This document shows, piece after piece, positions 1 to 62,379 of a stretch of 64,000 bases of DNA. A model generated the notes under the pieces. That model did not search any database. It was not told the DNA's origin and saw nothing but the letters and a program-made list of their open reading frames with translations. The translations under genes were made by a program, and so were the position numbers. This stretch comes from an uncultured Thermoleophilia bacterium (GTDB lineage: Bacteria; Actinomycetota; Thermoleophilia; UBA2241). The number at the start of each line of letters is the position of its first letter. Positions within the stretch are counted from its first letter, which is position 1. The stretch is taken from the NCBI GenBank assembly GCA_963696935.1, contig CAVOMB010000056.1:3331-67330 (forward strand), given 5' to 3'.

Positions 1-627
1 CTTGGCGGCCAGCGCCTCCGGCCCGCCGCGCAGTTCCTCGGCGACGGCGCACATCACGGAGAGGTCGCCGCCGTGCTCGGACGTCATCACCATCGGCTTG
101 GTGGTGTTGGTGACCATCGCCTTGAAGCTCTCGAGGTAGGAGCGCGCCGGCTCGATGTCGCTTGGATGCGCGAACGACATGACGAAGTCGATGTTGGGCA
201 GCGCGTCGCAGAGGCGCGCGGCGCGCGCCACGTCGGCCAGCACGCTGATCCGGTGCTCGCCGGTCTCGAGGTCGTAGGTGCTCATCAGGTCGGAGCCGGT
301 CCCGAAATAGCTGTTGTGGCCGCCGAGGGACATCGCCGGCTCGCCGGCGCGGTCGAAGATGTCGACGACCGCCGGCGCCGTTGCCCGAGCCTTCTCCACG
401 AGCTCGCGCGGGATGCGCACCAGCTCGGGCTCGGTCAGCTCCGCGCCGGCCGCGACCAGCAGTTCGCGCGCGCCGGGGTGCAGGACGCGCATGCCGACGG
501 ATCCGATGATCTCGAGTGCAGCCTCGTAGATGGCCGTCTTGTCTGCCGCGGTCAGGTAGGTCAGCCGGCCGGGACGCGGCCGTACGTCTGGCGCGCTCGT
601 TTGGGGGGTCGGGTCTGAGGTAGGCAC
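1..627 (-). CDS. MttB-superfamily (trimethylamine methyltransferase family) protein, N-terminal 209 codons; 3' end runs off the window
   Basis: My own minus-strand translation. GTG at 627 is preceded by GGAGGAG. The product reads ...TYLTAADKTAIYEAALEIIGSVGMRVL...YFGTGSDLMSTYDLETGEHR...LPNIDFVMSF... and is collinear with the paralogs at 45690-47126 and 48868-50280. The listed + ORF 73-618 is its antisense shadow. Confidence 0.8.
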   Translation of the reverse strand, partial: MPTSDPTPQTSAPDVRPRPGRLTYLTAADKTAIYEAALEIIGSVGMRVLHPGARELLVAAGAELTEPELVRIPRELVEKARATAPAVVDIFDRAGEPAMSLGGHNSYFGTGSDLMSTYDLETGEHRISVLADVARAARLCDALPNIDFVMSFAHPSDIEPARSYLESFKAMVTNTTKPMVMTSEHGGDLSVMCAVAEELRGGPEALAAK

Positions 628-780
628 CGTAGGCTCCTCCGTGGTCCAGATGGGGGTCTCGCGTCGTTCACCCTGACGGCACCCTCGCACCGCCGCAAGC
701 TCCTCCTGCTGTTGTCCAGAGTATTGAACTCGTTTTCGTTGTCGTGCGGCGAGGTGACCGTTATGCTGGATTGACGGGAG

Positions 781-1659
781 GTGGAAGCGATAGCCGACGC
801 ACGCAGACCCGACGAAGAAGGCACGACCTGGGGAGCCGCACGCGTCCTCGACGTGCTCGAGTTCCTCGGCCGGCGCACGAGCCCGGCACCGGCCAGCATC
901 ATCGCGTCCTCGTGCCACATCCCGCGCTCGAGCACCTACGGTCTGCTCAACCTGCTCAAGGAGCGGCGCTTCGTGAGCTACCGCTCCGACGAGCGCGCCT
1001 GGTCGCTCGGCTCGGCGGCGTTCGAGCTCAGCGCCGACGCACCGCTGTTCGCCCACGGTCTCGCCGTGCTGCGCGCGTTCGCCACGTCGTCGCGCGGACT
1101 CACCGTGCAGCAGATCGCGTTCGGCGCCGGCATGTCGCGGGTCGCCGTCACGCGCATCCTGCCGTACCTCGTCGAAAGCGACCTGCTGCATGCGGACCCG
1201 GGCGGCACCTACTCGCTCGGCCTCGAACTGGTCAGCCTCGCCTCGCGCGTCGGCTGGGTCGACCGCCTGCGCATCACCGCCCGGGCGCACCTCGTGCGCC
1301 TGCGCGACGCCACCGCGGAGACCGCCAACCTCATCGTGCTCGACGGCGACCATGCGATCTACGTGGACCAGGTCGAGAGCTCCTACGCTCTGCGCCACAG
1401 CGGCTGGGTGGGTCGCCGCGTGCCGCTGGCGGGCACCGCGACCGGCGGCGCCTTCGGCGACCGCACCCGGTCCCACGTGGCCAAGGACGCCGTGGAGACC
1501 GGCGTGACCTCCATCGTCTGCGTCATCGACCTGCCCGGCGACGATGCCGCGGTCGGCATCACGGCGCCGAGCTGGCGCATCGAGGAGTTCGGCGTCCCGC
1601 GTGCGCAGCAGATGGTCGAGGCTGTGGCGCGGGAGATCTCCCAGAGGGTGCGCGGCTGA
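781..1659 (+). CDS. IclR-family transcriptional regulator
   Basis: 292 aa. N-terminal winged HTH (ARVLDVLEFLGRR...IIASSCHIPRSSTYGLLNLLKERRFV) followed by an IclR-type effector domain. The start codon is uncertain because GTG 781 sits directly on a GGGAG. Confidence 0.75.
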   Translation: MEAIADARRPDEEGTTWGAARVLDVLEFLGRRTSPAPASIIASSCHIPRSSTYGLLNLLKERRFVSYRSDERAWSLGSAAFELSADAPLFAHGLAVLRAFATSSRGLTVQQIAFGAGMSRVAVTRILPYLVESDLLHADPGGTYSLGLELVSLASRVGWVDRLRITARAHLVRLRDATAETANLIVLDGDHAIYVDQVESSYALRHSGWVGRRVPLAGTATGGAFGDRTRSHVAKDAVETGVTSIVCVIDLPGDDAAVGITAPSWRIEEFGVPRAQQMVEAVAREISQRVRG

Positions 1660-1859
1660 TCGATCCTCTGCGGCGCGTCCGGCCCACCAGCAGGCCTGGA
1701 ACGGCGGCGCCCATTTGCGTCCGTGATTTCGGACAACCCCCCCTGCGTCTGGGCATCCCGCTCGGCACCGCCTACATTCGCCAGTGAGTCAGCAGCGGCG
1801 CCCCCGCGGCCCTTCGGGCCGCCCGGCGCGGCGCCTACCCCGCGAGAGGAGACACCCCG

Positions 1860-3383
1860 GTGACCATCATCCTGGACGGCTCGTCGCTCACCGTAGAGAA
1901 GCTCGTCGCCATCGCCCGCCACGGCGAGCAGGTACAGCTCGACCCGGCAGCCGCCGAGCGCATCAACGTCTGCCGCGCCATGCTCGAGGAGAAGATCGCG
2001 GCGCGCGAGATCATGTACGGCACCAACACCGGCATCGGCGAGTTCAGCGAGATCGTGCTCGACGACGAACAGGTCCAGCAGTTCCAGCGCTTCCTCGTCT
2101 ACAACCACGCTGCAGGCATCGGCGAGCCTGCGCCGGCCGAGGTCGTGCGCGCCGCCATGGCGGCGCGCGCCAACGTCCACGCCCACGGCAACTCCGGCAA
2201 CCGGCTGGTGATCACGCAGACACTCATCGAGTGCCTCAACAAGGGCGTCACGCCACTGATGAGCTCCAAGGGTTCGGTCGGCGCCTGCGGCGACCTCGCC
2301 CCGATGGCCCAGATGGCGCTCGTCATGATGGGCGAGGGCGAGTCCTTCTACCAGGGTGAGCGCATGCCCAGCCGAGAGGCACTCGAGCGCGCCGGCATCC
2401 CGGTGCCCGGGCTGGAGGCGCGCGACGGCCTGGCCACGATCAACGGCTCCAACGTCCTCACCGGCATGAGCGCGCTCCTCTGCTACGACGCCGAGCGCTG
2501 GTTCAAGCAGGCGGAGATCGCCGCGGCGATGAGCCTCGAGGCGCTGCTCGCCAACCTCAAGCCGTACAACAGCAAGCTGCACGAACTGCGCGGCTTCTCC
2601 GGCGCCGTGCGCAGCGCCGCCGCCATCCGCGCCTGCATCGCCGAGAGCGACCTCGCCACCGGCAAGATCAAGACCAAGGTGCAGGACGCGTACTCCATGC
2701 GCTCCACGCCTCAGGTCATCGGCGCCGCACACGACGCGCTCAAGTGGGCGAAGAGCCAGGTCGAGATCGAGCTGAACGGCGTCGGCGACAACCCGATCTT
2801 CGTGCCCGAGGACAAGCTGACGCTGACCGGCGCCAACTTCCAGGGCACGCCGGTCAGCCTCCCCATGGAGATGGTCGGGCAGGCCATCACCATGGTCTGC
2901 GTACTCAGCGAGCGCCGGCTCAACCGCATGGAGAACACGGCGACCAGCCAGGGTCTGCCCGACTTTCTCACGCCGAACCCCGGCTTCTACAGCGGACTGA
3001 TGCTCAGCCAGTACACGGCCGACATGCTGATCACCGAGCAGCGTATCCTCGCGGCGCCGGCGGCGACCATGAGCATCCCCGCCGCCGCCGACCAGGAAGA
3101 TTTCGTCTCCATGGGCATGAACACGGCCCTCAAGAACCGGCAGATCCTCGAGAACGCCTGCGGGATTCTCGGCATCGAGTTCATGGCCGCGGCTCAGGCC
3201 CTGGACTTCCGTGACTTCACGCCGGGCAAGGGCGTGCGGAAGGCCAAGGAGGTCATCCGCACGCATGTCGACCACCTCGACGTCGACCGTCCGCTCTTCC
3301 CCGACCACAACGCGATGGCCGCCCTGGTCAAGTCGGGTGAGATCCTCGACGCCGTCGAGGCGGAGGTCGGCTCGCTCGGCTGA
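1860..3383 (+). CDS. Histidine/aromatic amino-acid ammonia-lyase family (HAL/PAL) enzyme with an Ala-Cys-Gly triad
   Basis: 507 aa. RBS AGAGGAG lies 8 nt before the GTG. HAL-family blocks present: YGTNTGIGEF, YNHAAGIG, GSVGACGDLAPM, GLATINGSN, QDAYSMRSTPQVIGA, GANFQGTP, DQEDFVSMG. Confidence 0.85.
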   Translation: MTIILDGSSLTVEKLVAIARHGEQVQLDPAAAERINVCRAMLEEKIAAREIMYGTNTGIGEFSEIVLDDEQVQQFQRFLVYNHAAGIGEPAPAEVVRAAMAARANVHAHGNSGNRLVITQTLIECLNKGVTPLMSSKGSVGACGDLAPMAQMALVMMGEGESFYQGERMPSREALERAGIPVPGLEARDGLATINGSNVLTGMSALLCYDAERWFKQAEIAAAMSLEALLANLKPYNSKLHELRGFSGAVRSAAAIRACIAESDLATGKIKTKVQDAYSMRSTPQVIGAAHDALKWAKSQVEIELNGVGDNPIFVPEDKLTLTGANFQGTPVSLPMEMVGQAITMVCVLSERRLNRMENTATSQGLPDFLTPNPGFYSGLMLSQYTADMLITEQRILAAPAATMSIPAAADQEDFVSMGMNTALKNRQILENACGILGIEFMAAAQALDFRDFTPGKGVRKAKEVIRTHVDHLDVDRPLFPDHNAMAALVKSGEILDAVEAEVGSLG

Positions 3384-16480: not shown

Positions 16481-16484
16481 AACA

Positions 16485-17216
16485 TCACCTCGTGTTCCGC
16501 AGCTGCGCGGTGGTGCGCAGATGAGTGTAGGTGGGCGACTTGCCCGGGTTCAGGTCGACCAGCAGGTTGAGCTCGACGGCGCGGATCTGAGCGCGGTCGT
16601 CCGTGCCGCGTACGTCGCTCTCGTGCGCCAGAGTGCCGTCGCTGTTGTAGTAGATGTACGTGAAGACCGGAGTCGGGTTGGTGCTGCTGGGTGTCGTCAG
16701 GTTGATGACGTTGGACGCCAGCAGTTGCCCGCCCTCGCCGTTTGTCTGCTCGGACAGGTCAAAGCCCGACTCGGCAGTCTCATCGACACCGGAGATGGAA
16801 TTGCCGGTGCCGAGGTCCTGGAAACGCCAGAGCTGCCCGTTGGAATACAGGCGGTACATGACGAGGCGCGGAGTCACGTTGGCGAACTGGTTCCCGGTCT
16901 TGTTGAAGGTGGTGTACAGCTCGATGTAGAACGGTCGCGCGCGGACAATGCCGACCTCACTGATCGTGGCCGGGGGCTGCTCGACATCGCGGGTCTCCCG
17001 CTCCATTCGCGCCAGAGCCAGCCGCACGGTGTCGACCGTCTCATCACGCTTGGCCGTGGTCGCATACGAGCGCGAGAGAGCGAACCAGCTTAGCAAGATC
17101 ATCCCCGTCAGGAGCACGCTGATGCTCGCCGCCACGACGAGCTCGACCATCGTCATGCCGCCCTGGTCTCTCGCCTGCCTGGTCAGGGCCTCGTACGCCC
17201 TCCATCTGCAGTTCAT
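16485..17216 (-). CDS. Prepilin-type N-terminal methylation-domain protein, PilW-like (cassette A)
   Basis: Leader ...ARDQGG|MTMVELVVAASISVLL. Paralogous to 21050-21742 and 25758-26546 (shared motifs ...VFTY.Y...G...IR.V.L.L.VD.N...P....L.T....RN). The start could be ATG 17216 or the ATG at 17258. Confidence 0.7.
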   Translation of the reverse strand: MNCRWRAYEALTRQARDQGGMTMVELVVAASISVLLTGMILLSWFALSRSYATTAKRDETVDTVRLALARMERETRDVEQPPATISEVGIVRARPFYIELYTTFNKTGNQFANVTPRLVMYRLYSNGQLWRFQDLGTGNSISGVDETAESGFDLSEQTNGEGGQLLASNVINLTTPSSTNPTPVFTYIYYNSDGTLAHESDVRGTDDRAQIRAVELNLLVDLNPGKSPTYTHLRTTAQLRNTR

Positions 17217-17235
17217 CGCCGCACCACCAAGCCGA

Positions 17236-18972: not shown

Positions 18973-19254
18973 ATGCCCCTGCCTCCGGATAGACGGGGAG
19001 TTCTCTATTCGCTCTATCGGCGGGGAGGGAAAAAGCATGAGCCCTCTCCGGCTCATCCGTTGCCCCACCGGGCGCATGTCCTAGTAGGTTCGCCCGCCTC
19101 GCTTGTCCACCTTCGCCGCGGTCCTTTGCCAGTATCCCCGGGAAGGTGTACAGACGACCATTGTGACACTACTTCCCGGGCGACGAAAGGTGCGACGCGC
19201 TGGTTCGCCCCCCGGAACGACTACGTCGCCGGCGGAGACAACGCGGAAAGAAGA

Positions 19255-19343: not shown

Positions 19344-19376
19344 CGTGCTCAGCAGGGTTGCGCCCCGTGTCGGACC

Positions 19377-48866: not shown

Positions 48867-48867
48867 C

Positions 48868-50398: not shown

Positions 50399-50770
50399 CT
50401 ATTCGTCGTCGCCCCCGGGGCCGCACACCGCTTCGGGTGCCTGCGGCGCCATCCCGACCTTGGCGCCGCGAAGCATGCCCACGAGCTCTACCCGGTTCAG
50501 CCCCTTGAACATCCAGCCGAGCCACCGGAACAGGTCCATCTCCGCGATGATGGCCCCCTGGATGGCCATCAACTGGGCGTCGTCGGAATGCCGCCATGTC
50601 GCCGGCAGGACCAGGGCCTCTTCCTGGGGCAGGTGCTGGAAGTACAGTGCGACCAGTTCGTTGAACCGGCAGTTCGCGTTTGCGCCCGCCTGGATGCGAA
50701 CCTCCCCATCCGCGACGCGCACCTGCCGGCGCGCGTCGTCCGCGACGTCCAGCAGCCCCACCGGTCCCAC
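50399..50770 (-). CDS. Hypothetical protein (about 120 aa)
   Basis: A GGAGGTG RBS is followed by alternative GTG starts at 50770/50761. High GC3. No confident motif. Confidence 0.4.
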   Translation of the reverse strand: MGPVGLLDVADDARRQVRVADGEVRIQAGANANCRFNELVALYFQHLPQEEALVLPATWRHSDDAQLMAIQGAIIAEMDLFRWLGWMFKGLNRVELVGMLRGAKVGMAPQAPEAVCGPGGDDE

Positions 50771-50863: not shown

Positions 50864-51517
50864 TCAGATCCAGAAGCCCGGCGGCTCCGCGAGGTCCGGA
50901 TGCTCGCGCTCGAATGCGAGTGCGTCATCGAGTGTGCGCACCCAGTCGTAGTAGACGCCCTTGCAGTGGACGAGCTCGACGCCGAGGTCGCGGAGGCGGG
51001 CGAGGCCGTAGGCCTGTGCGCCCGCCGGAGAGTACACGGCATCCGCGGCCACGACGACGCGATAGCCGGCCTCGGCGAGGCCGACCGCCGAGTGGGTCAC
51101 GCACACATCGGTCTCGAAGCCGCAGAGCACGGCCGTCCTGCGGCCGGTCGCCGCGATCGCCGCCATGATGTCCGGGCAGGCGGCGGCGCCGAACACCGGC
51201 TTGGTGAAGATGGGCGCTCTCCGGTCGACGGCCAGCAGCACTCCCACCGCCGTCGGCCCGTTCCGCTCCGGGCTCTCCTCGGTGAGCACGACGGGCACGT
51301 CGAGAGCCATGGCCGCGCCGGCCAGCCAGGCGGCTCGCGCCACTGCTCTGCTCACCTCGGCGGCGTCGTCCTTGTCGAGCCTGTCGCTCCAGAACTTGGG
51401 CTGCAGGTCGATCACGACCAGAAGCGAGTCGTCACGGTCGATGAGGGGCACGGTCGCCTCCACGGCGTCGACGGGTTGCCGGGCGGCGGCCGCTGCGATG
51501 CGACCGCTGCCCGGCAC
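50864..51517 (-). CDS. Isochorismatase-family cysteine hydrolase (amidase type)
   Basis: D-K-C triad context: LLVVIDLQ, IFTKPVFGA, VLCGFETDVCVTHSA. The start is uncertain (GTG 51517 or 51463). The upstream part of the listed ORF looks non-coding. Confidence 0.7.
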   Translation of the reverse strand: MPGSGRIAAAAARQPVDAVEATVPLIDRDDSLLVVIDLQPKFWSDRLDKDDAAEVSRAVARAAWLAGAAMALDVPVVLTEESPERNGPTAVGVLLAVDRRAPIFTKPVFGAAACPDIMAAIAATGRRTAVLCGFETDVCVTHSAVGLAEAGYRVVVAADAVYSPAGAQAYGLARLRDLGVELVHCKGVYYDWVRTLDDALAFEREHPDLAEPPGFWI

Positions 51518-51798
51518 GATATCACCGCCGCCGTCCGGGCCGGCGTGTGGCCCCGAGACCCGCCAACTTGGGCGAACTTCGCAGATGCATCGGACCGCCC
51601 GCGACGGACTGCTCGGCGAAGTTGGACGCTCGAGCCGGCCACGCTTTACTCGCGCGCGCCCCGCCGATACCCTCGGTCTCTGCGAGCGGCGGGGCGCTCC
51701 CCGCGACCACGCCTGTGAGGCCGGGCGGCTCTTGACGGCTTCGCCTCGCCCGTCGTCTCGCCGGCCGTGACTCATCGCGTGGCAGCGGAGGTGCTCCA

Positions 51799-53268
51799 GT
51801 GAAGCGAAACCTGCACGCCGGGCGGCCCAGCTCGGGCGGGCTCAGCCTGAACGTGTTCACGGAGGCTGAGCTCAACGACGTCCACCTCGGCTCGCTCGAG
51901 ATCCTCGAACGCACCGGGATGTGGGTCGAGGCCGACGATGCGCTCGACATCTTCAGCGATGGTGGCTGCATCGTGGACCGCGAGACGCGCATGGTCCGCA
52001 TCCCGCCACACCTGGTGGAGGAGGCAATCCGATCCGCTCCACCCAAGAGCTTCCTGAACGGGCGAGACCCCGACCAGGACATCGTGCTCGAGGCCGGGCG
52101 CGTCTACGTCTCCAACTTCGACGAGGGCATCATGATCGTCGACGCGCGTACCGGCGAGTACCGCCACCCCGTGCTGGAGGATGTGCACGAGGCGGCTCGC
52201 CTGGTCGACGCCCTCAGCGACATCGACACCTACGAGTCGGCGGTGCACCCGGGCGACGTCCCCGAGGAGACGGCGAGCCTCCGCAAGTGGTGGGCGGCGA
52301 CCCAGAACACGGGCAAGCCAGTCGGCACCGAGGCGACGAGCGCCTACGACTGTCGCAGACTGATCGAGATGGCCACGGTGGTCGCGGGCGGCGAGGATGA
52401 GTTCCGCCGCCGCCCGCTCATCGGCTTCGGCGTCTGCCCGGTGAGCCCGCTCAAGCTGCCGCGCGACGCCACCGAGGTGATCATCGAGTCGGCGCGCGCC
52501 TGGTGCCCGGACACGATCCTCAGCATGGCGATGTCCGGAGGATCCTCCCCAGTCACTCTCGCCGGCACGCTGGTGCTGCACAACGCCGAGGTGCTCAGCG
52601 GCATCGTGCTGGCGCAGCTCGTCGAGCGCGGCTGCCCCTGCACCTACGGGTCGTCCACGACGGCCATGGACCTGAAGCTGGCGGCGGCGTGTGTGGGCTC
52701 GCCGGAGCTCGCCCTCTTCTCCGCCGCCTGCGCCCAGATCGCCCGTCACTACCTGCTGCCAAGCTTCGTGGCCGGGTTGTAGAGCGATTCCAAGCTCGGT
52801 GACGCGCAGACCGGTCACGAGAAGACCCTCACCGGACTCCTTCCTGCGTTGGCAGGCGCCAACCAGATCTACGGTGCGGGGATGATCGAATCGGGCGTCA
52901 CCTTCGACCTTGGCCAGCTGGTCATGGACAACGAGATCGCGCGGATGATCAAGTTCGCCGTCGGCGGCATCGCGGTCACCGACGAGACCATGGCGATCGA
53001 CGACATCGCCAAGGTGGGCGCGTTCGGCGACTTCCTCTCGCTGGACGCCACGCTCAAGCACATGCGCGAGCTCAGTCAGCCGGCAGTGCTCGACCGCCGC
53101 GTGCGTGAGGACTGGGAGAGCAGAGGGGCGACCGACCTCGCCTCCCGCTCGCGCGCCCGGGCGCTGGAGCTTGTAGAGTCTCATCAGCCGGCGCCCGTCG
53201 ACCCCGACGTGGCCGAAGAGGTTCGCCACATCATTGCAGCGGCAGACCGTGAGAAAGGCGTGGCATGA
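51799..53268 (+). CDS. mttB: Trimethylamine:corrinoid methyltransferase MttB with an in-frame TAG (52780-52782) at the pyrrolysine position
   Basis: GTG 51799 follows GGAGGT. Listed ORFs 51799-52782 and 52849-53268 are in the same frame and separated only by one TAG. The merged product is 489 aa, with context ...HYLLPSFVAGL-TAG-SDSKLGDAQTGHEKT... The stop overlaps the mttC start (ATGA). Confidence 0.7.
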
Positions 53269-53891
53269 AAGACCAGCTCAAGCAGTCCATCATCGACGGC
53301 AACGAGGGCGTGGCCACGGCCATGACGTCCGCGCTGCTCGCTACCGGGGCCAGCCCCCGTGAGATCCTCGACGAGGGCCTGCTCCCCGGCATGGAGGTGG
53401 TGGGCGCGCGCATGCGCGAGGGCGAGTGCTTCATCCCCGAGGTGCTGCTCTCCGCCCGCGTCATGCAGGCCTGCCTCGACCTGCTGCGCCCGCACATGGC
53501 GGCCGGCGACTCGGCCGGCATGGGCACCGTCGTGATCGGCACCGTCGAGGGCGACCTGCACGACATCGGCAAGAACCTCGTGGGCATGCTCCTGCAGGGC
53601 GCCGGCTTCACGGTCGTCAACCTCGGCACCGGGGTGACCAGCGCCGACTTCGTCGCCGCGGTCAGAGAGCACTCCCCGCAGATCATCGGCATGAGCGCCC
53701 TGCTCACCACCACCCTGCCGCACATGAGCGAGACCATCGCCCTGCTCAAGGGCGCGGGCCTGCGGGACTCGGTCAAGGTGATGGTCGGCGGCGCCCCCGT
53801 GACCGCCGCCTACGCCGAGGAGATCGGCGCCGACGGCTACGGCGCCAACGCCGGCATGGCGGTGGAGCGGGCGAAGGAGTTGGTGGGGTAG
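53265..53891 (+). CDS. mttC: Corrinoid (cobalamin-binding) methyltransferase partner protein, MttC-like
   Basis: 208 aa. An N-terminal helical cap is followed by a B12-binding Rossmann domain with the DxHxxG motif (GDLHDIGKNLV) and ...IGMSALLTTT... It ends with tandem TAG TAG. Confidence 0.85.
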   Translation: MKDQLKQSIIDGNEGVATAMTSALLATGASPREILDEGLLPGMEVVGARMREGECFIPEVLLSARVMQACLDLLRPHMAAGDSAGMGTVVIGTVEGDLHDIGKNLVGMLLQGAGFTVVNLGTGVTSADFVAAVREHSPQIIGMSALLTTTLPHMSETIALLKGAGLRDSVKVMVGGAPVTAAYAEEIGADGYGANAGMAVERAKELVG

Positions 53892-53923
53892 TAGGCTCAC
53901 ACCGTCCAGTCCCGGGAGGGCTC

Positions 53924-55285
53924 ATGACGGCGACCATCGACCGCAAGCGGCTCGCGGCGCTCAAGGCGCGCGAAGACGAGGCCTTCGTCGCAAGCCATCG
54001 GCGCTCGCGCGAGCTCTTCGAGCGGGCGCAGGCGCACATGCTCGACGGCGTCCCCATGAATTGGATGACGCGCTGGGCGAGCCCGTTCCCGCCGTATGTC
54101 GCCGAGGCGCACGGCGCCCGGTTCACCTGCGTCGACGGGCACGAGTACATCGACTTCTGCCTCGGCGACACCGGCGCCATGACCGGCCACTCCCCGGAGG
54201 GACCAGTCGCCGCCGTCGCCGCCCAAGCCAGCCGCGGCATCACCACGATGCTGCCGACTGAGGATTCTCTTTGGGTGGCCGCAGAGCTCGCGGACCGCTT
54301 CGGCCTGCAGTACTGGCAGCTCGCCCTGACGGCTACCGATGCCAATCGCTTCGCCGTCCGCCTGGCCCGCCATGTCACCCGGCGGCCCAAGATCCTCGTC
54401 TACAACTACTGCTATCACGGCTCGGTCGACGAGACGATCATCACTATCAGCGACGGCGTGCCGGGACCGAAGCCGGGCAATGCCGGACCGCCGGTCGACC
54501 CCGCCGTCACCACCAAGGTGATCGAGTGGAACGACCTCGCGGCGCTGGAGAGTGCGCTCGCGCCCGGCGACGTGGCCTGCGTCCTCGCCGAGCCCGCCCT
54601 CACCAACATCGGCATCGTCCTTCCGGACGACGGCTACCACGACGCTCTGCGCCGCCTGACGCGAGAGACGGGGACGCTGCTCATCATCGACGAGACGCAC
54701 ACGATCTGCGCCGGCCCAGGCGGATGCACCCTGGCCTGGGCGCTCGAGCCGGACATGGTCACGCTCGGCAAGCCCATCGGGAGCGGCGTGCCCGCCGCCG
54801 TCTACGGCTTCGGCCCGGCGGTGGCCGACCTCATCCACGCGAACTGGGACTACCACGCCGCCGACGAGTGCGGCATCGGCGGCACGCTGGCCGGCAACGC
54901 CCTCAGCGTCGCGGCGGTCCGCGCGACGCTCAGCGAGGTCCTCACAGAGGAGGCCTACGAGCGGATGATCCCGCTGGCCGGCCGCTGGGCCGACGGCGTG
55001 CAAGGCGTCATCGACGAGTTCGCCCTGCCGTGGGTGGTCAAGCGCCTCGGCTGCCGTGCGGAGTACTGGCCGCGCCCTGTGCCACCGCACAATGGCGGCG
55101 AGGCGGCCGCGGCTGAGGATGAAGAGCTCGATCGCTACCTGCACCTGTTCATGCTCAACCGTGGCATCCTCATGACGCCGTTCCACAACATGGCGCTCAT
55201 GTCGCCGCAAACCGCGGCGGCCGACGTTGATCGTCACACCGAGGTGTTGCGCGAGGCCGCGCGGACGCTCACTGCCACAACCTAG
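53924..55285 (+). CDS. Class-III PLP aminotransferase / GSA-aminomutase-like enzyme (second copy)
   Basis: ATG 53924 follows GGGAGGG. Motifs: TATDANRFAVRLAR, LIIDETHT, and the PLP lysine in VTLGKPIGSGVPAAVYG. Confidence 0.75.
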   Translation: MTATIDRKRLAALKAREDEAFVASHRRSRELFERAQAHMLDGVPMNWMTRWASPFPPYVAEAHGARFTCVDGHEYIDFCLGDTGAMTGHSPEGPVAAVAAQASRGITTMLPTEDSLWVAAELADRFGLQYWQLALTATDANRFAVRLARHVTRRPKILVYNYCYHGSVDETIITISDGVPGPKPGNAGPPVDPAVTTKVIEWNDLAALESALAPGDVACVLAEPALTNIGIVLPDDGYHDALRRLTRETGTLLIIDETHTICAGPGGCTLAWALEPDMVTLGKPIGSGVPAAVYGFGPAVADLIHANWDYHAADECGIGGTLAGNALSVAAVRATLSEVLTEEAYERMIPLAGRWADGVQGVIDEFALPWVVKRLGCRAEYWPRPVPPHNGGEAAAAEDEELDRYLHLFMLNRGILMTPFHNMALMSPQTAAADVDRHTEVLREAARTLTATT

Positions 55286-55844: not shown

Positions 55845-57326
55845 TCACGCCGTGACCCCGGCGAGTTCCAAGTCGGCAGCCGCGACGAGCCGCCGCAACT
55901 CCAGGCTCACGTCGTCGGGGAGGGGAGCGGGCGCGTGCGTCCGCAAGATCTCACGCGCCCGCTCCTCAGCGTTCTCGAGCGCTCCCTTCTTGCCCCCGAC
56001 GAACCAGGCGTCGTAGGGCGTCCGGTCCCACACCCCCGGCCGCCAGATCTCTCCCATGTGCCGGCGTGTGTGCTTCTCCGCCAGGTACGCGCCCTTCGAT
56101 CCGACCTTCTTGATCACGTCGAGTGCCAGCGTCTCGTCGTCCACCACGATGCCGCCGGCGACCTCCTGCATGATGCCGTAGATCTCGGTCTCCATGACCA
56201 GGTGCGCGTAGCTCAGGGTCTTCGATCCGTCGAGCAGACCGCAGCCGCTCATCATCTCTGCACCCGCGCCCACGCCGGCGAGCGTCGAGAGCGCATCGTC
56301 AACGGCGGCCTGCCAGCCCGGCTCCTTGGCGCCGCTCGCCATGGTGCCTATGTTCATGGCGAAGCCGAAGTGGTGCGCGAGCTCGGTGGCGGCGGCAGCC
56401 AGGACGTAGTCCTCAGGGCTGCCGCCGGTGTAGCCGCCCGTCTTGAGGTCCATCACGGAGGGCGCGCCGGCCAGGAAAACGGGCGCGCCTGGATGCGCGA
56501 GTTGCACGAGGACCATGCCCGCGAGGACGGCGGCCATGTTGACGACGAGGTTGCCGGCCAGCGTCGCAGGCGCGGACGCACATGCGAGCGTCAGCGAGAG
56601 GAAGCCGACGGGGACGCCGGCCTCGGCACAGACCAGCGCCGCCTCGAGGCTCACCGCCTCGTTGCCCAGCGGGTCGATCGGGCAGGCGATCAGGCTCATG
56701 ATGGGCCGGCGGCGGAGCTCTTCGTCCCCGCCGGCCACGACGCGCGCCATCTCGACCACGCGGCGGGTCATGTCCTCGCCCACCACGTCCACCGCCTGGA
56801 AGTGCTTCGTGGTGTTGGCGAAGATCGCCGCGGCCTCGTGCACGGGCCGCGCGGCGACGGGCACGTCCTCGGCCGTCACGACCGGGCCCCAGTAGAAGCT
56901 CACCTGCGGGAGGGCGTCGACGAAGCGGGCAGACTCTGCCACGTCGGCGATCCCGCTCGCGCGCAGCTCACCGCTGTGCGGGTCGATGACACGGACGCCG
57001 CAGCCGTCGTTGCTCAAGTGGCAGGCGGAGCCGTCCAGCCGGATGTCGCAGCGGGGGTCGCGGGCGGCGAGAAGCGGCACCTTGTGCGCCGCCTGCAGCG
57101 CCGCCCGGACGACGTCCCGCGGCAGGAGCGCGATCTGCGATGCGCGGTCGACGCGGCAGCCGCCTCGTTCGAGCGCGTCGAGCGCGCGCTCCAGCGGGAA
57201 GCGCACGCCGACCTCGGCCAAGGTCTCGAGGATCGCCTCCTCGAGCCGCTCCACGTCCGCTGCGCTGAGCACGTCCCAGCGCAAGCGCGGCCGGATGGGG
57301 TCGATCCTTGCTACCGCCTCAGCCAT
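55845..57326 (-). CDS. MttB-superfamily methyltransferase, non-Pyl (paralog of 47149-48615)
   Basis: ATG 57326 follows AGGAGGAG. 493 aa. HLSNDGCGV, ...GTMASGAKEPGWQA..., YLAEKHTRRHMGEIWRPGVWDR. Confidence 0.85.
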   Translation of the reverse strand: MAEAVARIDPIRPRLRWDVLSAADVERLEEAILETLAEVGVRFPLERALDALERGGCRVDRASQIALLPRDVVRAALQAAHKVPLLAARDPRCDIRLDGSACHLSNDGCGVRVIDPHSGELRASGIADVAESARFVDALPQVSFYWGPVVTAEDVPVAARPVHEAAAIFANTTKHFQAVDVVGEDMTRRVVEMARVVAGGDEELRRRPIMSLIACPIDPLGNEAVSLEAALVCAEAGVPVGFLSLTLACASAPATLAGNLVVNMAAVLAGMVLVQLAHPGAPVFLAGAPSVMDLKTGGYTGGSPEDYVLAAAATELAHHFGFAMNIGTMASGAKEPGWQAAVDDALSTLAGVGAGAEMMSGCGLLDGSKTLSYAHLVMETEIYGIMQEVAGGIVVDDETLALDVIKKVGSKGAYLAEKHTRRHMGEIWRPGVWDRTPYDAWFVGGKKGALENAEERAREILRTHAPAPLPDDVSLELRRLVAAADLELAGVTA

Positions 57327-57441
57327 GGCTCCTCCTGGTCGCCTCCCCGATGCTACCGGGGCTGGGCGACCGGCGTCATCCGGCCGGCGCCGTGTCTCTC
57401 CCGTGACGCCGACACACATGCCGCCTCGGCCGCGTACGCAC

Positions 57442-57477
57442 GAAGGGCGGCGAGGCACTCACGCCCCGCCGCCCTTC
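57442..57477 (-). terminator. 11-bp perfect-stem hairpin after the ABC operon
   Basis: GAAGGGCGGCG(14 nt)CGCCGCCCTTC, 25 nt downstream of the ATPase stop. No U-tract. Confidence 0.35.
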
Positions 57478-57501: not shown

Positions 57502-58506
57502 CTACAGCTCCTCGTCCCCCGGAGGCAGCGGTGTCTCGCCGGCCGCACCTTGCCCGAGCGGGATCTCGGGCAGAGCCGTGTCTCTGAGGTCGTCCTCGTT
57601 GAACGCCGCGCCGGCTGCGTGCTGCAGCGACTCGCCGGAGTCCGAATCGGGCAGGTTCTCGTCAACCTCGGTCACGCTCAGCTCCTTGGCGTGCTCGGGC
57701 TCCTTCTCCGGCAGGATGTGCCGCAGGAACCGCTTGGTGCGGTCGTCCTTAGGATGGAAGAAGACGTCGCTCGGCGGGCCTTGCTCGATGAAGTAGCCGT
57801 CTTCCATGTACACGACACGGTCGGCGACGTCGCGGCTGAAGCCCATCTCGTGGCTCACCACGATCATCGTCATGCCGCCTTCAGCGAGGTCCTTCATGAC
57901 CTTGAGCACCTCGCCGATGAGCTCGGGGTCCAGCGCACTGGTCGGCTCGTCGAAGAGCATGAGCACCGGGTCCATCGCCATGGCGCGGGCGATGGCGACA
58001 CGCTGCTTCTGGCCACCGGAGAGCTGGCTCGGGAAGAAGTCCATGCGATCGGCCAAGCCCACCTTGGTGAGCAGTTCATGGGCCTCGCGAATGGCTTCTT
58101 CCTTCTTCAGGCCCTTCACCAGGATAGGACCCTCGGTGACGTTCTCAGTGGCGTCCTTGTGTGGGAAGAGGTTGAACTCCTGGAACACCATGCCGCACTT
58201 CATGCGGATCTCGTGCACGTCCTTCTTGAACTTGCCGCCGTGACTGCCGCAGGTGACGTGGACGTCCCCGACCCTGATCTCGCCCGAGGTCGGGTCCTCG
58301 AGGAAGTTCAGGCAGCGGAGGAAGGTGCTCTTGCCGGAGCCGGATGGCCCGATGAGCACCAGCACTTCACCCTTGTAAACCTCGAGGTCGATGCCCTTGA
58401 GCACGTGGTTCTTGCCGAAGTATTTCTGCAGACCCTCGACCTTGACGACGAGTTCGCGCCCCTTCTCGTCGGTGATCGTCTCATGTGCGTATGTCTTTGT
58501 GCCCAT
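57502..58506 (-). CDS. Polar amino-acid ABC transporter ATP-binding protein with an ~80-aa acidic C-terminal extension
   Basis: Walker [10 protein letters not shown], signature [14 protein letters not shown], Walker [13 protein letters not shown]. The tail is ...[15 protein letters not shown]...PPGDEEL. Confidence 0.85.
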
Positions 58507-58507
58507 G

Positions 58508-59737
58508 CTACTTCGCCTTCCCCTTTTCCTTCTCGCGGGCCTTGTCGCGCGCCATGCGCGTCTCGAGCTTGGCCTGCCAGAAGCTGAAGAAGATCGTCAA
58601 CGCCCAGTACCAGGCCGCAGCCACCAGCAGCGTGCTGAAGAAGCTGAAGGTCGCGGCGCCGGCAAGCTGCGAACGGCGCAGCAGTTCTTCGACGGTGATG
58701 ACCGATACCAGCGAGGTGTCCTTGATGAGGGCGATGAAGTCGTTGCCCACCGCCGGAATGACGATCTTTAGCGCCTGCGGCAGGATGATGCGCCGCTGCG
58801 TCTGCCAGCCGCTGAGGCCGATGGCCCACGCGGCTTCGTTCTGGCCCTTGGGGACCGCCTGGATACCGGCGCGGAACACCTCGGTGAGGTAGGCGCCGTA
58901 GTTGAGCGAGAGTGCGACGACGCCCGCCCAGAAGGCCGGCGGGTTGAGCGACTCCGGCAGACCCGCCTTCTGGATGATCTCGGGGATCACCTGGTAGATG
59001 GCGATGATCTGCAGCAGCAGTGGCGTACCTCGGAACAGTGACGTGTAGAACGTCGCGACCCAGTACGGGATGCGGCCGAGGACCATGCGCCACATGTAGC
59101 CCCAGCTCTGGTACCGGTTCCACGCTTGTCTGAAGGTCATCTTCTTGGAGAGGCGCCCCAGGGAGCCGAAGAGCGCGAGAAGGCAGGCGAAGACGATGGA
59201 GATGACGGTGAGCTCGACGGTGACCAAGCCGCCGCGAGCGATGTACCAGAACCAGTCCTTCATCACCTGGACGCTGACGAGGCTGCCGGCCTCGGCGTCG
59301 CCCGTCGAGCCGAACTTCCAGGTGTAGGTGACCTTGGTGCCCGTCTTGGTCTCGAGGGTCGTCTTGAACGCGTAGTCGCCGGAGCCGTACTTCTTCACCA
59401 AGTCGAACTGCAGCGTCGACGTAGCGCGGGAGACGGCGGGGACGATGAACGGCGGCTTGCTGAGCTTCTGCTCCACGCCGTTGATGAACACCTTGCTCTT
59501 CCCGACCGCGAGCTCGGCGCCGTTGGGTTGGAAGTTGACCTGCACGATATCGCCGGTCCACTTCTGGATGCCCTTAGGATCGAGTGGATTCGGGATCGTG
59601 CCCTTGACGACGGGAGTGCCGCTGGGCGCCGGCGATGACGATGCCGCCGCCAGAGCGATTGGCGTGAGGGATGCCACCGCCAACGCGAGCACTGCCGCGA
59701 AGAAGGCGACACTCACGAACCAGTGTCGTTTGTGCAT
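58508..59737 (-). CDS. Amino-acid ABC transporter permease (HisM/GlnP type) with a ~150-aa N-terminal extracytoplasmic domain
   Basis: Signal/anchor helix, then a beta-rich domain, then a permease core with EAA-like loop [22 protein letters not shown]. Confidence 0.8.
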
Positions 59738-59845
59738 CGGCGAAGACCTCTCGGTAGGGACCGCGGCGGGGGGCCCGTTGGGGGCACCCCCGCCGTGATC
59801 GACCCAACTATGCGGCCGCGCCCCGCGGGCGCGGCCGCAGTGTCA

Positions 59846-60728
59846 CTACTCCTTGACCGTCAAATCGAGGCCGTTGTACCACTTCTCGCTCATCGCGGTG
59901 AGCGAGCCGTCCTCGTGCATCTGCGCGATGGCGTAGTTGAGCATCGTGAGCCAGTCGCCCTCGCCCTTTTTGATAGCGAACGCGAGGTCCTCGTAGTAGA
60001 GCGGAGCGCCGGAGAAGTCGAACGGCTGACCCTGCGAGGATGGCCTGCTGGCCGGTGGGGCCGGCGGTCATCACGAAGTCGAGGTTGCCGTTGCGCAGGT
60101 CCGGGAAGGCGTCCGCGTCGGTGGTGTACGTCTTGACGTCGGCGGTGCTGTTCGTCTTGAGGTAGTCGTAATAGGTGGTCGCAGCGCCCACGCCGACCTT
60201 CTTACCGTCGAGATCCTTGACGCTGGTGATCTGCGTGCCGCCCTTCTTCACGAACACCTGGCCCGACGTGTAGTAGTACGGCTCGGTGAAGTCGAGGGCC
60301 TTTTGGCGCTCGGGCGTCACAGTCATGGAGCCGATGGACACGTCGTACTTGCCCTGGTTGAGGCCCGCCGGGATGGTCTCCCACGCCGGGTTCTCGAACT
60401 TGACCTGGAGGCCGAGGATCTCAGCCATCTTCTTGGCCACGTCGACGTCGAAGCCCACGAGATCGCCCGTGGCCTTGTCGATGGAGCTCTGCGGCGCGTA
60501 GTTGGCGTCGTTGGCGACGACCACGGTGCCTGCGGTGACGATCTTGGCCGCGAGACCCGTCGGCGCCTTGCCCAGGATCTGCTGTGCGATGTCCGCGGCC
60601 GAGGTGGCCTGCGGGCTGGGGCTGGACTCTGAATCGCTGCTGCCACCGCACGCGGCTGCGAACCCCGCGAGAGCGATGACGGCGACCAGGAGTACTGCCG
60701 CCAGAATGTAGGTCTTGCCCTTTCTCAT
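59846..60728 (-). pseudogene. Amino-acid ABC substrate-binding lipoprotein, 1-nt frameshift near 60030
   Basis: Lipobox LAGFAAAC. Family-3 SBP motifs: VVANDANYAPQS, GFDVDVAKKMAEILG. After ...GQQAILAG the true continuation (QPFDFSGAPLYYEDLAFAIKKGEGDWLTMLNYAIAQMHEDGSLTAMSEKWYNGLDLTVKE*) lies in another frame. Confidence 0.7.
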
Positions 60729-60855
60729 GCCTCAGTCCTTTCCGGCTGACTTCTCCCGACGCCGCTGAGCCACGGGTGTGGACGCGGATGGCGGCCCCCA
60801 CCGCCTGTCAGGAACGTACTGTGTCGCACTCCCCCAGCGCGACGTATCGACTTGG

Positions 60856-60884
60856 ATTTATACAGCACCACCCCCGAAAGGCAA
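60856..60884 (-). promoter_or_regulatory. Candidate sigma-70-type promoter for the ABC operon
   Basis: On the minus strand: TTGCCT (60884-60879), 16 nt, TATAAAT (60862-60856), about 125 nt upstream of the SBP ATG. This is the best consensus match I found in the window. Confidence 0.45.
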
Positions 60885-60999
60885 GCCTGCGCGAAGCTGG
60901 TGGCGAAAAGAGTCGGCCTGAGTTGTGAGTATCTGGGCATTCCTGCGCCGGGATGTCGCTCGCACGATGCGCAGACTGCGAGCCTGTCGCGCGGACGCG

Positions 61000-62379
61000 T
61001 CAGTCGATGGAGGCCAGACGACGCAGCCCCGCATCGACCGCGGGCTCGAGCGCAGGCGGGCGATGCGAGGCGGCAGTGCGCGCGACCCGCTCGTGCGCTC
61101 TGTCGATCGCGGTCTCCCGCCCGCTGGCGGTCCACTGGCGCATCGGCATGTCGACCGCGAGGGTCGGCCCGGCGGCGGGGTCGGCGTGCCCGCCGGCCGA
61201 ACCGCCGGCGGCAGTGAGGTCGACGCCCGCGGCTATCGCCCGCGCATGCGAGAGGGCCTCTACCCCTAGCGCCATCTCCTCGTAGCTGAAGATGCGGCCG
61301 CCCGAGACCATGCCGACACCGGTCAGCATGTCCACGCCGGCAGCCAGCGAGAGCCAGGTGGTGGTGGTGTCGTCCAGCGCCGACTGCCAGCTCGGCTCCT
61401 TGGCGCCGCTGGAGTTGACCCCGCACTGGGTCGGCAGGCCGTAGAAGTGGCCCACGTCGCCGACGGCGGCAGCCATGATGGTGTCCTCGGGAGCCCCGCC
61501 TGTGAAGTCGCCGCTCTTGAGATCCATCACGCTCGGGATGAAGCAGATGAACACAGGTGCACCCGGGAACGCCGCCTGGATCACGCACACGGAACTGAGG
61601 GCCTCGGCGATGCCGACCACGAGCGAGCCGGCCATGGTGATCGGCGTCGTCGAGCCGCCCATCGGCATCGTCACGAAGCCGATGGGAATGCCGGCCTCGG
61701 CGAAGACCAGGCCGGCTTCGAGCGTGCCGGCGTCGTTGCCGAGCGGCGTGACGGTGCCGAGCAGGGCGCTGATCGGCGGCTCGGCGCGGAGCTTCTCGTT
61801 CGAGCCGCTCACCGCCAGCGCCATCTTCACGGCGACCTCGGCTAGGTCGGGCTCCACGACCGTCACCGTCTGCACGTGCTTGCCGGTGTTGGCGATGGCC
61901 AGGTACAACTCGTGCAGCCCGCGGACCTCAACCGGCCGGTCCTGCGCGCTGACGGCCGGCCAGCAGAAGTCGACCTCGGGCATGGCGTCGACGACGCGGC
62001 TGATGGTCGCGACGTCTTCGGCCGTCGTGCCACGCTTCTGGCCGGTCTCGAGATCGTAGATCTCCACACAGCAACCGTCGGTGGTGAGCAGCGAGCCGGT
62101 GCCGGTGACGATGGGCGCCCCCGCGCGAGCGCCCAGCGTCATGCGCGCCGGTGCCAGGCCGACCAGCCGGCGCACGAGCTCCCGCGGCAGCGTGACGCGC
62201 GCGCCGTCGGCGGTGGCGCCCTGCGCCACCAGGGCGGCGCGCGCCCGCTCACACGGGATGGAAACGCCGGTATCGGCGAGTACGTCGAGTGCCGCCTCGT
62301 CGAGGCGCTGAAGGTCATGCTCCGAGAGGATGGCCAGTCGCCCGGCCGAGCCGATCGTGTGGGTGAGGCTCTGCGTCAT
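61000..62379 (-). CDS. MttB-superfamily methyltransferase, non-Pyl, with a divergent C-terminus
   Basis: 459 aa. LLTTDGCCV, ...QCGVNSSGAKEPSWQS... The usual C-terminal HTRRH...W.P block is replaced by unrelated sequence. Confidence 0.75.
   Translation of the reverse strand: MTQSLTHTIGSAGRLAILSEHDLQRLDEAALDVLADTGVSIPCERARAALVAQGATADGARVTLPRELVRRLVGLAPARMTLGARAGAPIVTGTGSLLTTDGCCVEIYDLETGQKRGTTAEDVATISRVVDAMPEVDFCWPAVSAQDRPVEVRGLHELYLAIANTGKHVQTVTVVEPDLAEVAVKMALAVSGSNEKLRAEPPISALLGTVTPLGNDAGTLEAGLVFAEAGIPIGFVTMPMGGSTTPITMAGSLVVGIAEALSSVCVIQAAFPGAPVFICFIPSVMDLKSGDFTGGAPEDTIMAAAVGDVGHFYGLPTQCGVNSSGAKEPSWQSALDDTTTTWLSLAAGVDMLTGVGMVSGGRIFSYEEMALGVEALSHARAIAAGVDLTAAGGSAGGHADPAAGPTLAVDMPMRQWTASGRETAIDRAHERVARTAASHRPPALEPAVDAGLRRLASID

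Follow-up and report, generated by a model that had tools for sequence, protein, structure and literature searches.

A conserved island of MttB-family genes in uncultured Thermoleophilia, with a pyrrolysine-type mttBC pair and an operon of lysine-catabolic enzymes

Gene Content of the Island

The 64,000-nucleotide stretch of DNA analyzed here (the window, meaning this whole stretch) comes from an uncultured Thermoleophilia bacterium (assembly GCA_963696935.1, contig CAVOMB010000056.1, positions 3,331 to 67,330) and carries an island of eight genes of the trimethylamine methyltransferase (MttB) family, designated M1 to M8, one of which is of the pyrrolysine (Pyl) type. A preliminary description made from the nucleotide sequence had located these eight genes, and all of them match PF06253 with 67 to 330 bits (gathering cut-off, 25 bits); with E-values between 1e-18 and 1e-98, eight such matches within 64 kb lie far beyond chance. 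Seven are on the minus strand and M6 alone is on the plus strand. Because the GC content across the window is 64–73%, lists of its open reading frames (ORFs) are crowded with antisense artifacts. Genes were called by third-position GC and frame plot and then scanned against Pfam; the scan took in all ORFs with a clear coding signal, minus a few paralogs of no-hit proteins between 21 and 27 kb.

Most of the genes of interest fall into three transcription units. The first runs on the minus strand from 51775 down to 33967 and contains, in order, an isochorismatase-family hydrolase, a small unknown ORF, M5, M4, M3, M2, the lysine 2,3-aminomutase KamA, the corrinoid activase RamA, five EamA permeases, a class-III pyridoxal phosphate (PLP) enzyme (AT3a), and a beta-keto acid cleavage enzyme (BKACE), with short gaps and several 4-bp overlaps at the junctions. 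The second is divergent from it, on the plus strand, and comprises M6, the corrinoid protein MttC, and a second class-III PLP enzyme (AT3b). The third (minus strand) consists of M8, a substrate-binding protein, a permease, an ATPase, and M7. M1, which is cut off at the window edge, is divergent from an IclR regulator and a histidine-ammonia-lyase (HAL)-like gene. Pfam thus reproduces the accessory genes that had been described as interspersed with the mttB genes, namely two enzymes resembling glutamate-1-semialdehyde (GSA) aminomutase, an isochorismatase-family protein, a BKACE, KamA, an ATP-binding cassette (ABC) system, and drug/metabolite transporter (DMT) permeases.

For comparison, GTDB species genomes were scanned with the M1 fragment, which yielded 80 loci (1.3 Mb); being chosen by M1-like genes, they are a biased sample. 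Nearly all belong to uncultured Thermoleophilia or other Actinomycetota, and they derive from soil, lake sediment, peat (palsa_647, bog_752), and digesters; the MFD isolate names of the soil loci we take to denote Microflora Danica metagenome-assembled genomes (MAGs). These peat MAGs are among those listed as mtxB-encoding by Ellenbogen et al. (PMC10805028), and Actinobacteriota in peat express Pyl-type mttB as well as other, non-Pyl mtxB methyltransferase genes (PMC10805028). With the KamA-like protein as query, the contigs of five relatives (L082, L083, L084, L085, and L086) were read. The full set searched for second methyltransferases and for tRNA-Pyl comprises 84 related loci (1.4 Mb), and the flanks of the window were deduced from synteny with relatives.

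A Pyrrolysine-Type MttB and Its Corrinoid Protein

M6 (51799-53268, plus strand; PF06253, 305 bits) is the sole gene of the window to pass the TIGR02369 equivalog, scoring 655.9 against a cut-off of 525, whereas M2, M3, M4, M5, M7, and M8 score 213–464, all below it. It aligns end to end with the Methanosarcina barkeri MttB structure 7XCL (383 bits). The TAG that the preliminary description had noticed in this gene is in frame (52780-52782) and sits on the Pyl of 7XCL: VAGL-TAG-SDSK of M6 is aligned with VAGS-Pyl-SDAK, the Pyl being residue 334 of M. barkeri MttB. In the non-Pyl paralogs, the same column holds A, V, H, R, or S. The ortholog of M6 in L083 is 77% identical and has the same TAG with the downstream frame conserved, and the mttB gene of L085 is split likewise, into ORFs of 327 and 139 amino acids (aa). 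Judged by its sequence, M6 alone in the window is a true trimethylamine methyltransferase.

The MttC-like corrinoid protein is encoded immediately downstream (53265-53891, plus strand). It has B12-binding and B12-binding_2 domains, carries the DxHxxG motif as GDLHDIGKN, and is 36–45% identical to MtgC, MttC, and MtqC. The stop codon of M6 and the start codon of mttC overlap as ATGA, and the two genes read as a translationally coupled, Pyl-type mttBC pair; because of this overlap, MttC is probably M6's own partner. The mttC gene ends on two consecutive TAG codons (53889-53894). The 45 genes of the window whose stop codons were counted terminate in TGA (32) or TAG (13) and never in TAA, therefore TAG has not undergone genome-wide reassignment. 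The island is thus a clean bacterial high-GC case in which the TAG of a Pyl-type mttB is conserved across species while TAG stays a frequent stop codon.

AT3b (approximately 53894-55285, plus strand; PF00202), which follows the mttBC pair, passes NF005453, a transaminase subfamily, with 656 against a cut-off of 425, and matches PDB entry 5YKR with 445 bits. Its true start codon lies slightly after 53894.

The Non-Pyrrolysine Paralogs

The other seven MttB-family genes are of the non-Pyl type. M1 (1-627; PF06253, 67 bits) is an N-terminal fragment of 209 aa that runs off the window. Within the long operon lie M2, a divergent, alanine-rich paralog (44281-45693; 160 bits), M3 (45690-47126; 251 bits), M4, which belongs to the conserved core of the operon (47149-48615; 330 bits; TIGR02369, 464), and M5 (48868-50280; 240 bits). 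M7 (55845-57458; 280 bits) is probably over-called at its start by about 45 N-terminal aa. M8 (61000-62379; 223 bits) has a diverged C-terminus: it matches positions 26–407 of PF06253 only, and its C-terminal 70 or so aa lie outside the profile. All seven are on the minus strand.

Identity among the paralogs ranges from 23 to 61%. The two closest pairs are M4/M7 (61%) and M3/M5 (57%); M8 and M2 share 37–39% with the M4 group and M1 shares 36% with M3 and M5; all remaining pairs lie between 23 and 39%. Eight reference enzymes served for comparison with characterized proteins (three MtgB, MtcB, MtpB, MtyB, and two MttB; the phosphocholine enzyme is not among them). None of the seven non-Pyl paralogs exceeds 35% identity to any of them, or 32% over full-length alignments; the figure of 35% comes from the M1 fragment, whose match to MtyB is weak (42 bits). 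Identity to MtcB, MtyB, and MtpB is 21–35% over the first 400 aa or so, which does not reach ortholog level. Identity to MtgB is 23–32%, whereas true MtgB orthologs share 69% across domains. The glycine-betaine-binding residues of Desulfitobacterium hafniense MtgB are Y97, R312, H348, and F356 (PMC13080624). This tetrad is complete in none of the window paralogs, only the histidine being kept, in M3, M5, and the M1 ortholog of L002; with the tetrad missing, assignment of any window paralog as MtgB was rejected. Tight clustering with characterized betaine methyltransferases, which the preliminary description had named as evidence against orphan clades, is seen for no non-Pyl paralog. By these comparisons the seven are old orphans of uncharacterized clades.

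M4 and M2 mark the two extremes of conservation. M4 keeps 30 of the 30 superfamily-conserved columns examined, and public data contain 375 members of its 90%-identity cluster. M2 is without about one third of the superfamily-conserved positions, and its orthologs are 83, 59, 43, and 38% identical, vs. 91, 82, 82, and 79% for M4 in the same genomes. The M2-type proteins lack, for example, the proline of the TPL motif and the aspartate of the SDM motif, and they evolve two to four times faster than their neighbors. Their place is nonetheless constant, after an MttB gene and directly upstream of KamA (8414-9853 in L082, 8523-9881 in L083, 8515-9864 in L084, and 7855-9183 in L085). The M2-type may be a non-catalytic partner subunit.

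An Operon Combining MttB Paralogs with Lysine-Catabolic Enzymes

KamA (42804-44099, minus strand) is a radical S-adenosylmethionine (SAM) lysine 2,3-aminomutase of the AblA/KamA type. It scores 565 against TIGR03820 (cut-off 525) and matches Clostridium subterminale KamA (PDB 2A5H) with 537 bits; the radical-SAM motif CxxxCxxC (here CSMYCRHC) is conserved, as are Asp293 and Asp330, which, from the 2A5H structure, we take to be the ligands of the lysine epsilon-ammonium group. PylB was considered as an identity for this KamA-like gene and rejected, the protein being a lysine 2,3-aminomutase at equivalog level. At the far end of the operon, its last gene (33967-34797, minus strand; PF05853, 323 bits) encodes a Kce-type BKACE that scores 382.3 against the NF052387 Kce equivalog (cut-off 382) and has 284 bits to Kce (PDB 2Y7D). 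AT3a precedes it (34801-36111, minus strand; PF00202). The best NCBIfam and PDB matches of AT3a are GSA aminomutases, at approximately 200–257 bits and below their cut-offs. It is the most conserved gene of the operon, with orthologs 88–94% identical; BKACE, M4, and KamA also belong to the best-conserved group.

Between AT3a and the activase gene lie five tandem EamA/DMT permeases on the minus strand (36407 to approximately 37300, 37315-38247, 38244-39158, 39177-40118, and 40115-40888), all five of which match PF00892. Several overlap by 4 bp. The copies are approximately 40–55% identical to one another and are therefore old duplicates, which perhaps form hetero-oligomers. The first gene of the array encodes the isochorismatase-family hydrolase (50864-51775, minus strand; PF00857, 81 bits). 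The small ORF that follows it (50399-50770, minus strand), upstream of M5, is Pfam-less. L082 has in its place a hemerythrin-domain protein of 294 aa (1881-2765), to part of which the ORF is 52% identical; the window copy may be truncated or mis-called.

The order of the operon (two to five MttB genes, KamA, RamA, three to six EamA copies, Aminotran_3, BKACE) is kept in all five relatives, in which KamA is 93, 78, 75, 72, and 77% identical to that of the window (L082 to L086, respectively). Its invariant MttB members are an M4-type and an M2-type gene directly upstream of KamA. Variants include a 3-hydroxyacyl-CoA dehydrogenase before BKACE in L084 and L086 and an SBP_bac_3 gene after KamA in L085. 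According to Pfam, the KamD/KamE, Kdd, and Kal families are represented neither in the window nor in the five related operons.

Literature searches on MttB with aminomutase or trimethyllysine, on hercynine with corrinoid, and on PanB with corrinoid returned nothing relevant. The operon, as a combination of M4-type and M2-type MttB proteins, KamA, RamA, tandem EamA permeases, a GSA-aminomutase-like PLP enzyme, and a Kce-type BKACE, is a new element for which no description was found, and MttB genes placed within operons for amino-acid catabolism seem not to have been described.

Corrinoid Partners, Activase, and the Second Methyltransferase

RamA (40885-42738, minus strand) is a RACo/RamA-type, ATP-dependent corrinoid reductive activase with an N-terminal 2Fe-2S domain (Fer2, RACo_linker, Raco_middle, and RACo_C_ter); it is also AcsV-like (410 bits). 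The one MttC-like protein and the one RamA-like activase of the preliminary description are both recovered by their Pfam domains. Since a MetH B12-domain query and the MtqC control each match only 53265-53813, the window has a single corrinoid gene.

The preliminary description had also found no methyltransferase of the uroporphyrinogen decarboxylase (URO-D) fold, and a wider search agrees. PF01208, PF00809, and PF02007 match none of the scanned ORFs of the window. Eight seeds for the second methyltransferase (MT2), of three types, were taken from Table S2 of Ellenbogen et al. (2023): they include the MtrH-like D. hafniense MtgA, the MeTr/pterin-binding MtqA, Dhaf_4612, and ELI_2005, and the URO-D-type MtaA, MV10360, and MtsA. 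These three families have no match in the window (tblastn, E ≤ 0.1; phmmer, E ≤ 0.01), where the MtqC control recovers the corrinoid gene, and none in the 84 related loci, where the same control recovers 29–30 corrinoid genes. Queries with HemE and with the pterin domain of Escherichia coli MetH likewise match nothing in the window. By tblastn, the 80 M1-derived loci hold 201 MttB segments vs. 25 of MttC, and the recurrent neighbor genes of the related loci, once annotated, include none that is MT2-like. Of a three-component methyltransferase system, a corrinoid protein with DxHxxG and a RACo activase are present, and an MT2 of any of the three types is absent alongside, in the window and in the 84 loci. 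The possibility that partners lie just outside the window was followed through the syntenic flanks, which add MttB genes and no corrinoid or MT2 gene.

The expectation that each MttB enzyme is paired with its own corrinoid protein and MT2, from which the preliminary description started, is too strong. In Eubacterium limosum, a single set of MtqC, MtqA, and RamQ, with genes in clusters of their own, serves MtpB, MtcB, and MtyB (PMC8604678), and Ruegeria pomeroyi has mtgB, mtgC, mtgD, and ramA at separate loci, with modules shared with methionine synthase (PMC12478193). As dispersed, shared partners are already the rule in these two organisms, an abundance of first methyltransferase (MT1) genes beside few corrinoid proteins, with MT2 missing from the vicinity, is no anomaly; the pattern is real, expected, and unsurprising to specialists. 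Known systems also encode MT2 elsewhere, so its absence nearby is compatible with the mechanism.

The position of RamA bears on what the non-Pyl paralogs do. The only known job of RamA is the reduction of Co(II) corrinoid proteins. The gene lies within the largest non-Pyl MttB operon and is kept there in five relatives, and its presence inside the operon therefore argues that the non-Pyl paralogs carry out corrinoid methyl-transfer chemistry. No corrinoid gene lies within approximately 20 kb of the non-Pyl operon in L084 and L086, which makes it probable that the shared partner is encoded at some other place in the genome. Of the two options put forward earlier, a corrinoid protein shared by many methyltransferases is thus likely in the form of shared or remote partners, which best fit the location of RamA and the precedents, and unlikely for the MttC of the window, which is probably M6's own. 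The second option, recruitment of the MttB fold to other chemistry, found no positive support; a small possibility is left for the partly degenerate M2-type.

Proposed Function and Alternatives

On balance, and with modest confidence, we favor the reading that the locus is a catabolic island for N-methylated amines, composed of the Pyl-type M6-MttC pair, non-Pyl MT1 enzymes whose shared partners are encoded elsewhere, and an operon for N-methyl-lysine. The island would be a conserved one of uncultured Thermoleophilia (Gaiellales-like Actinomycetota of peat, lake sediment, soil, and digesters). Beside M6, the remaining seven MttB genes, or nine and more should the contig extend like that of the syntenic relative, would be ancient, substrate-specific MT1 enzymes, each moving one methyl group from its own N-methyl substrate to the Co(I) of a corrinoid protein, which the RamA of the operon would keep reduced. 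That corrinoid protein and the methyl-corrinoid:tetrahydrofolate (THF) methyltransferase would be shared and encoded elsewhere in the genome. The 18-kb operon (M5-M4-M3-M2-KamA-RamA-EamA x5-AT3a-BKACE) would most likely import and demethylate an N-methylated lysine such as N-epsilon-trimethyllysine. The resulting lysine could then be converted to beta-lysine by KamA and to a beta-keto acid by AT3a, and BKACE could complete the route by a thiolytic-type cleavage with acetyl-CoA. Because the paralogs sit inside amino-acid catabolic operons, their surroundings point to substrates: M1 groups with the HAL-like gene, M7 and M8 group with an importer of the Lys/Arg/Orn type, and each paralog may serve one N-methylated amino acid or betaine.

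This proposal builds on which genes are present and to which families they belong, on the TAG aligned with Pyl, on the conservation of the operon, and on the lack of a known MT2 gene nearby, all of which are established; from there, methyl transfer by the non-Pyl paralogs, the sharing of partners, and all substrate assignments are inferred, and a location elsewhere in the genome is assumed for MT2, further corrinoid proteins, and pylTSBCD. Several further points count against it. TAG being an ordinary stop in 13 of 45 genes, Pyl insertion must compete with termination, and no tRNA-Pyl was found in the window or in the 84 related loci; given that M6 is nevertheless of the Pyl type, the pyl genes would have to lie elsewhere in the genome. 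Measured against the textbook pathway, the lysine route has gaps, as KamDE and Kdd were not found in the window or the five related operons, and a beta-transaminase role for AT3a is a guess, because its resemblance is to GSA aminomutases. The non-Pyl MttB enzymes characterized to date take only a single methyl group from quaternary amines, so that complete demethylation to lysine would need either chemistry unseen in the MttB family or further enzymes. The M2-type, finally, having lost conserved positions, may not be catalytic. As a side observation, a Pyl-decoding cell with these stop codons would read through many genes unless Pyl insertion were regulated or inefficient.

The best-surviving rival, which we regard as unlikely, has all eight MttB enzymes deliver their methyl groups to the MttC of the window (53265-53891). 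This is the sole B12-binding gene in 64 kb, RamA is only 11 kb away, and in E. limosum one corrinoid protein does serve several MttB paralogs (PMC8604678). What tells against this is the translational coupling of mttC to the Pyl-type M6, together with the relatives: L084 and L086 have the operon and RamA without a corrinoid gene in approximately 20 kb, L085 has a Pyl-type mttB without an adjacent mttC, and in related genomes other MttC paralogs (43–55% identical) adjoin other MttB genes.

A bolder form of the favored reading, of which we are doubtful, would see here an undescribed anaerobic pathway in which corrinoid-dependent demethylation of an N-methyl-lysine, such as trimethyllysine derived from proteins, is joined to a KamDE-independent beta-lysine route, with the MttB family diversified for amino-acid betaines (lysine, histidine, proline, and valine types) and a methyl partner perhaps outside the three MT2 families.

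It is improbable that a classical MT2 is missing from the genome altogether, its place being taken by an unrecognized second methyltransferase or by direct transfer from corrinoid to acceptor. The three MT2 families are indeed absent within 10 kb on either side of approximately 200 MttB genes in the 84 loci, where approximately 30 corrinoid genes are present. However, E. limosum and R. pomeroyi also lack MT2 in the neighborhood and have it elsewhere (PMC8604678, PMC12478193); moreover, the search covered neighborhoods rather than whole genomes, with seeds from distant phyla.

More improbable still is the proposal that some of the MttB-fold proteins do not transfer methyl groups, for example that the M4-type and M2-type proteins with a corrinoid replace KamDE, the missing B12-dependent beta-lysine 5,6-aminomutase, that AT3a replaces Kdd, and that a lysine-fermentation route ending at Kce is completed in this way. 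This would account for the presence of KamA and a Kce-equivalog BKACE without KamDE and Kdd, for the two MttB paralogs that always lie directly upstream of KamA, and for the degeneration of the M2-type at conserved positions. Yet RamA-type activases serve Co(I)/methyl-Co(III) methyltransferases and not adenosylcobalamin mutases, M4 is the most MttB-like of the non-Pyl paralogs with every examined column intact, and no adenosylcobalamin-related or PLP-binding mutase features were seen. That the array is mostly debris of recent duplications decaying to pseudogenes without distinct functions hardly deserves credence: the alanine-rich, fast-evolving M2, the diverged C-terminus of M8, and a 152-aa MttB fragment in L082 hint at decay, but the between-group identity of 23–39% is that of old paralogs, all ORFs are intact with a strong third-position GC coding signal, orthologs in other species are 62–92% identical with their order kept, and the M4 cluster is widely populated (375 public members).

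Relation to Known Systems and Significance

M6 and MttC resemble M. barkeri MttB/MttC (7XCL) in their full-length alignment, the TAG at the Pyl position, and the adjacent corrinoid protein. Unlike the archaeal enzyme, M6 is bacterial (42–46% identical), the island is without an MtbA-type coenzyme M methyltransferase, and TAG is a common stop in the window. The glycine betaine:THF system of D. hafniense (MtgB/MtgC/MtgA with RamA) likewise combines a bacterial non-Pyl MT1, a corrinoid protein, and a RamA homolog, but its parts are all clustered (PMC13080624), whereas the island has no MT2 and its paralogs do not have the Y97/R312/H348/F356 tetrad.

E. limosum shares with the island many divergent non-Pyl MttB paralogs, which in E. 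limosum are substrate-specific and use a shared corrinoid protein, MT2, and activase. The island differs in that the identity of its paralogs to MtpB, MtcB, and MtyB does not exceed 35%, the host is a high-GC actinobacterium, the activase lies inside the MttB operon, enzymes of lysine and histidine catabolism are encoded among the MttB genes, and no MtqA-type gene occurs in 1.4 Mb of related neighborhoods. Aerobic glycine betaine demethylation in R. pomeroyi, with its split MetH modules, offers a concrete model for the location of the missing MT2; unlike the host of the island, R. pomeroyi is an alphaproteobacterium with a single substrate, no Pyl enzyme, and no lysine-catabolic context.

In lysine fermentation (KamA, KamDE, Kdd, Kce, Kal/Kat), the points of likeness are equivalog-level KamA and Kce in one operon and a class-III PLP enzyme; Kat of the alternative lysine pathway is itself a class-III PLP enzyme. 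In contrast, the island lacks KamDE, Kdd, and Kal, and has MttB paralogs, RamA, and multiple EamA permeases inserted. The literature searches found no described pathway with this combination of lysine enzymes and MttB.

Very large MttB families are known from 'Candidatus Formimonas warabiya' DCMF, with 82 MttB genes of which 7 have Pyl (PMC9768040). Among peat MAGs, Thermoleophilia and other Actinobacteriota are listed as mtxB-encoding, and some express Pyl-type mttB (PMC10805028). The work on DCMF and on peat was concerned with the number or type of mtxB genes; for the bacterial MAGs the screen covered mtxB only, without operon context.

Non-Pyl MttB enzymes number in the thousands and, to our knowledge, their known substrates are only glycine betaine, proline betaine, carnitine, gamma-butyrobetaine, and phosphocholine. 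Seven to nine orphan MttB clades here gain a genomic context, which suggests methylated derivatives of lysine and histidine as substrates that can be tested. Peat and sediments, in which the host organisms are abundant and show active transcription, are settings where methylated amines either feed methanogenesis or compete with it. The lysine link, if true, would be both a new entry of protein-derived methyl groups into anaerobic one-carbon metabolism and a new variant of lysine catabolism.

Neighboring Genes and Minor Observations

The third transcription unit encloses a polar amino-acid ABC transporter of the Lys/Arg/Orn type (57502-60728, minus strand), with an ATPase (57502-58506), a permease (58508-59737), and an SBP_bac_3 binding protein (59808-60728) that is nearest to the Lys/Arg/Orn type. 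The adjacency of M8, the binding protein, and M7 is retained in L084 and L086.

At the left edge, the IclR-family regulator (781-1659, plus strand; HTH_IclR and IclR_C) is divergent from M1, and the HAL-like gene follows (1860-3383, plus strand; PF00221, 525 bits). The latter encodes an enzyme of the 4-methylideneimidazole-5-one (MIO) type that falls just below the hutH equivalog cut-offs and has 300 bits to HAL (1GKM) vs. 183 to ergothionase (6S7J). As an ergothionase supplying trimethylamine to M6 it is unsupported, since it is nearer to HAL and keeps an MIO-type motif. This motif is Ala-Cys-Gly in place of the usual MIO-forming Ala-Ser-Gly, both in the window and in 20 close orthologs (L002-L017, L029, L030, L040, L042, and L060), while the more distant orthologs (L018-L025, L056) have Ala-Ser-Gly. 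The gene is always beside IclR and M1, and HAL-IclR-M1 synteny is kept in approximately 25 related loci. In L002, M1 is 92% (full-length ortholog, 498 aa), HAL 98%, and IclR 93% identical to the window. Its left flank has two more MttB genes after M1, and no corrinoid protein or MT2 was found there. Beyond the position of the left edge, L002 (14571-20625) further encodes an SBP_bac_5 protein, a xylose-isomerase-like TIM barrel, an octopine/nopaline-dehydrogenase-like protein, a second HAL-like protein, and a molybdenum hydroxylase, a set that looks like utilization of opine-like or N-substituted amino acids. On the right side, relatives have MoeA and thiamine pyrophosphokinase.

Other related loci vary on the same theme. 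An extra non-Pyl MttB gene and an MttC gene stand between HAL and IclR in L006, L010, L012-L015, L024, and L060; the window has no such pair there. In further relatives (L028, L056, L078), MttB and MttC share a cluster with urocanase (HutU) and another HAL paralog, and the occurrence of MttB and MttC in such HAL/HutU clusters suggests a substrate of the histidine-betaine type. Ornithine cyclodeaminase/mu-crystallin genes are interleaved with MttB in L064, L074, L076, L077, L057, and L062, which makes a link to proline- or ornithine-derived betaines possible.

Approximately 30 related loci (e.g., L051 7698-9847, L052 7867-9929, L067, L070, and L074-L077) hold a conserved PanB-MttB cluster, made up of AsnC, a PanB-like protein, a class I/II aminotransferase, MttB, a further MttB or an MttC, TetR, two aldehyde:ferredoxin oxidoreductases, and a G3P-dehydrogenase-like flavoprotein. 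The PanB-like gene (PF02548), which passes the panB equivalog, encodes a THF-dependent enzyme directly upstream of MttB; the window has none. A tandem PanB pair acting as a surrogate THF methyltransferase was considered and dropped, the second gene being the class I/II aminotransferase.

Finally, a Pfam-less protein module occupies 15302-27373 of the window (minus strand) in about three copies (15305-16360, 16488-17177, and 17239-18972; 20229-22509; 25773-27307). GC content at the first codon position is unusually low across it, and the module closes with a protein bearing a type-IV-pilin-like N-terminal methylation motif. The same module also adjoins UPF0182 in L033, L034, and L038.

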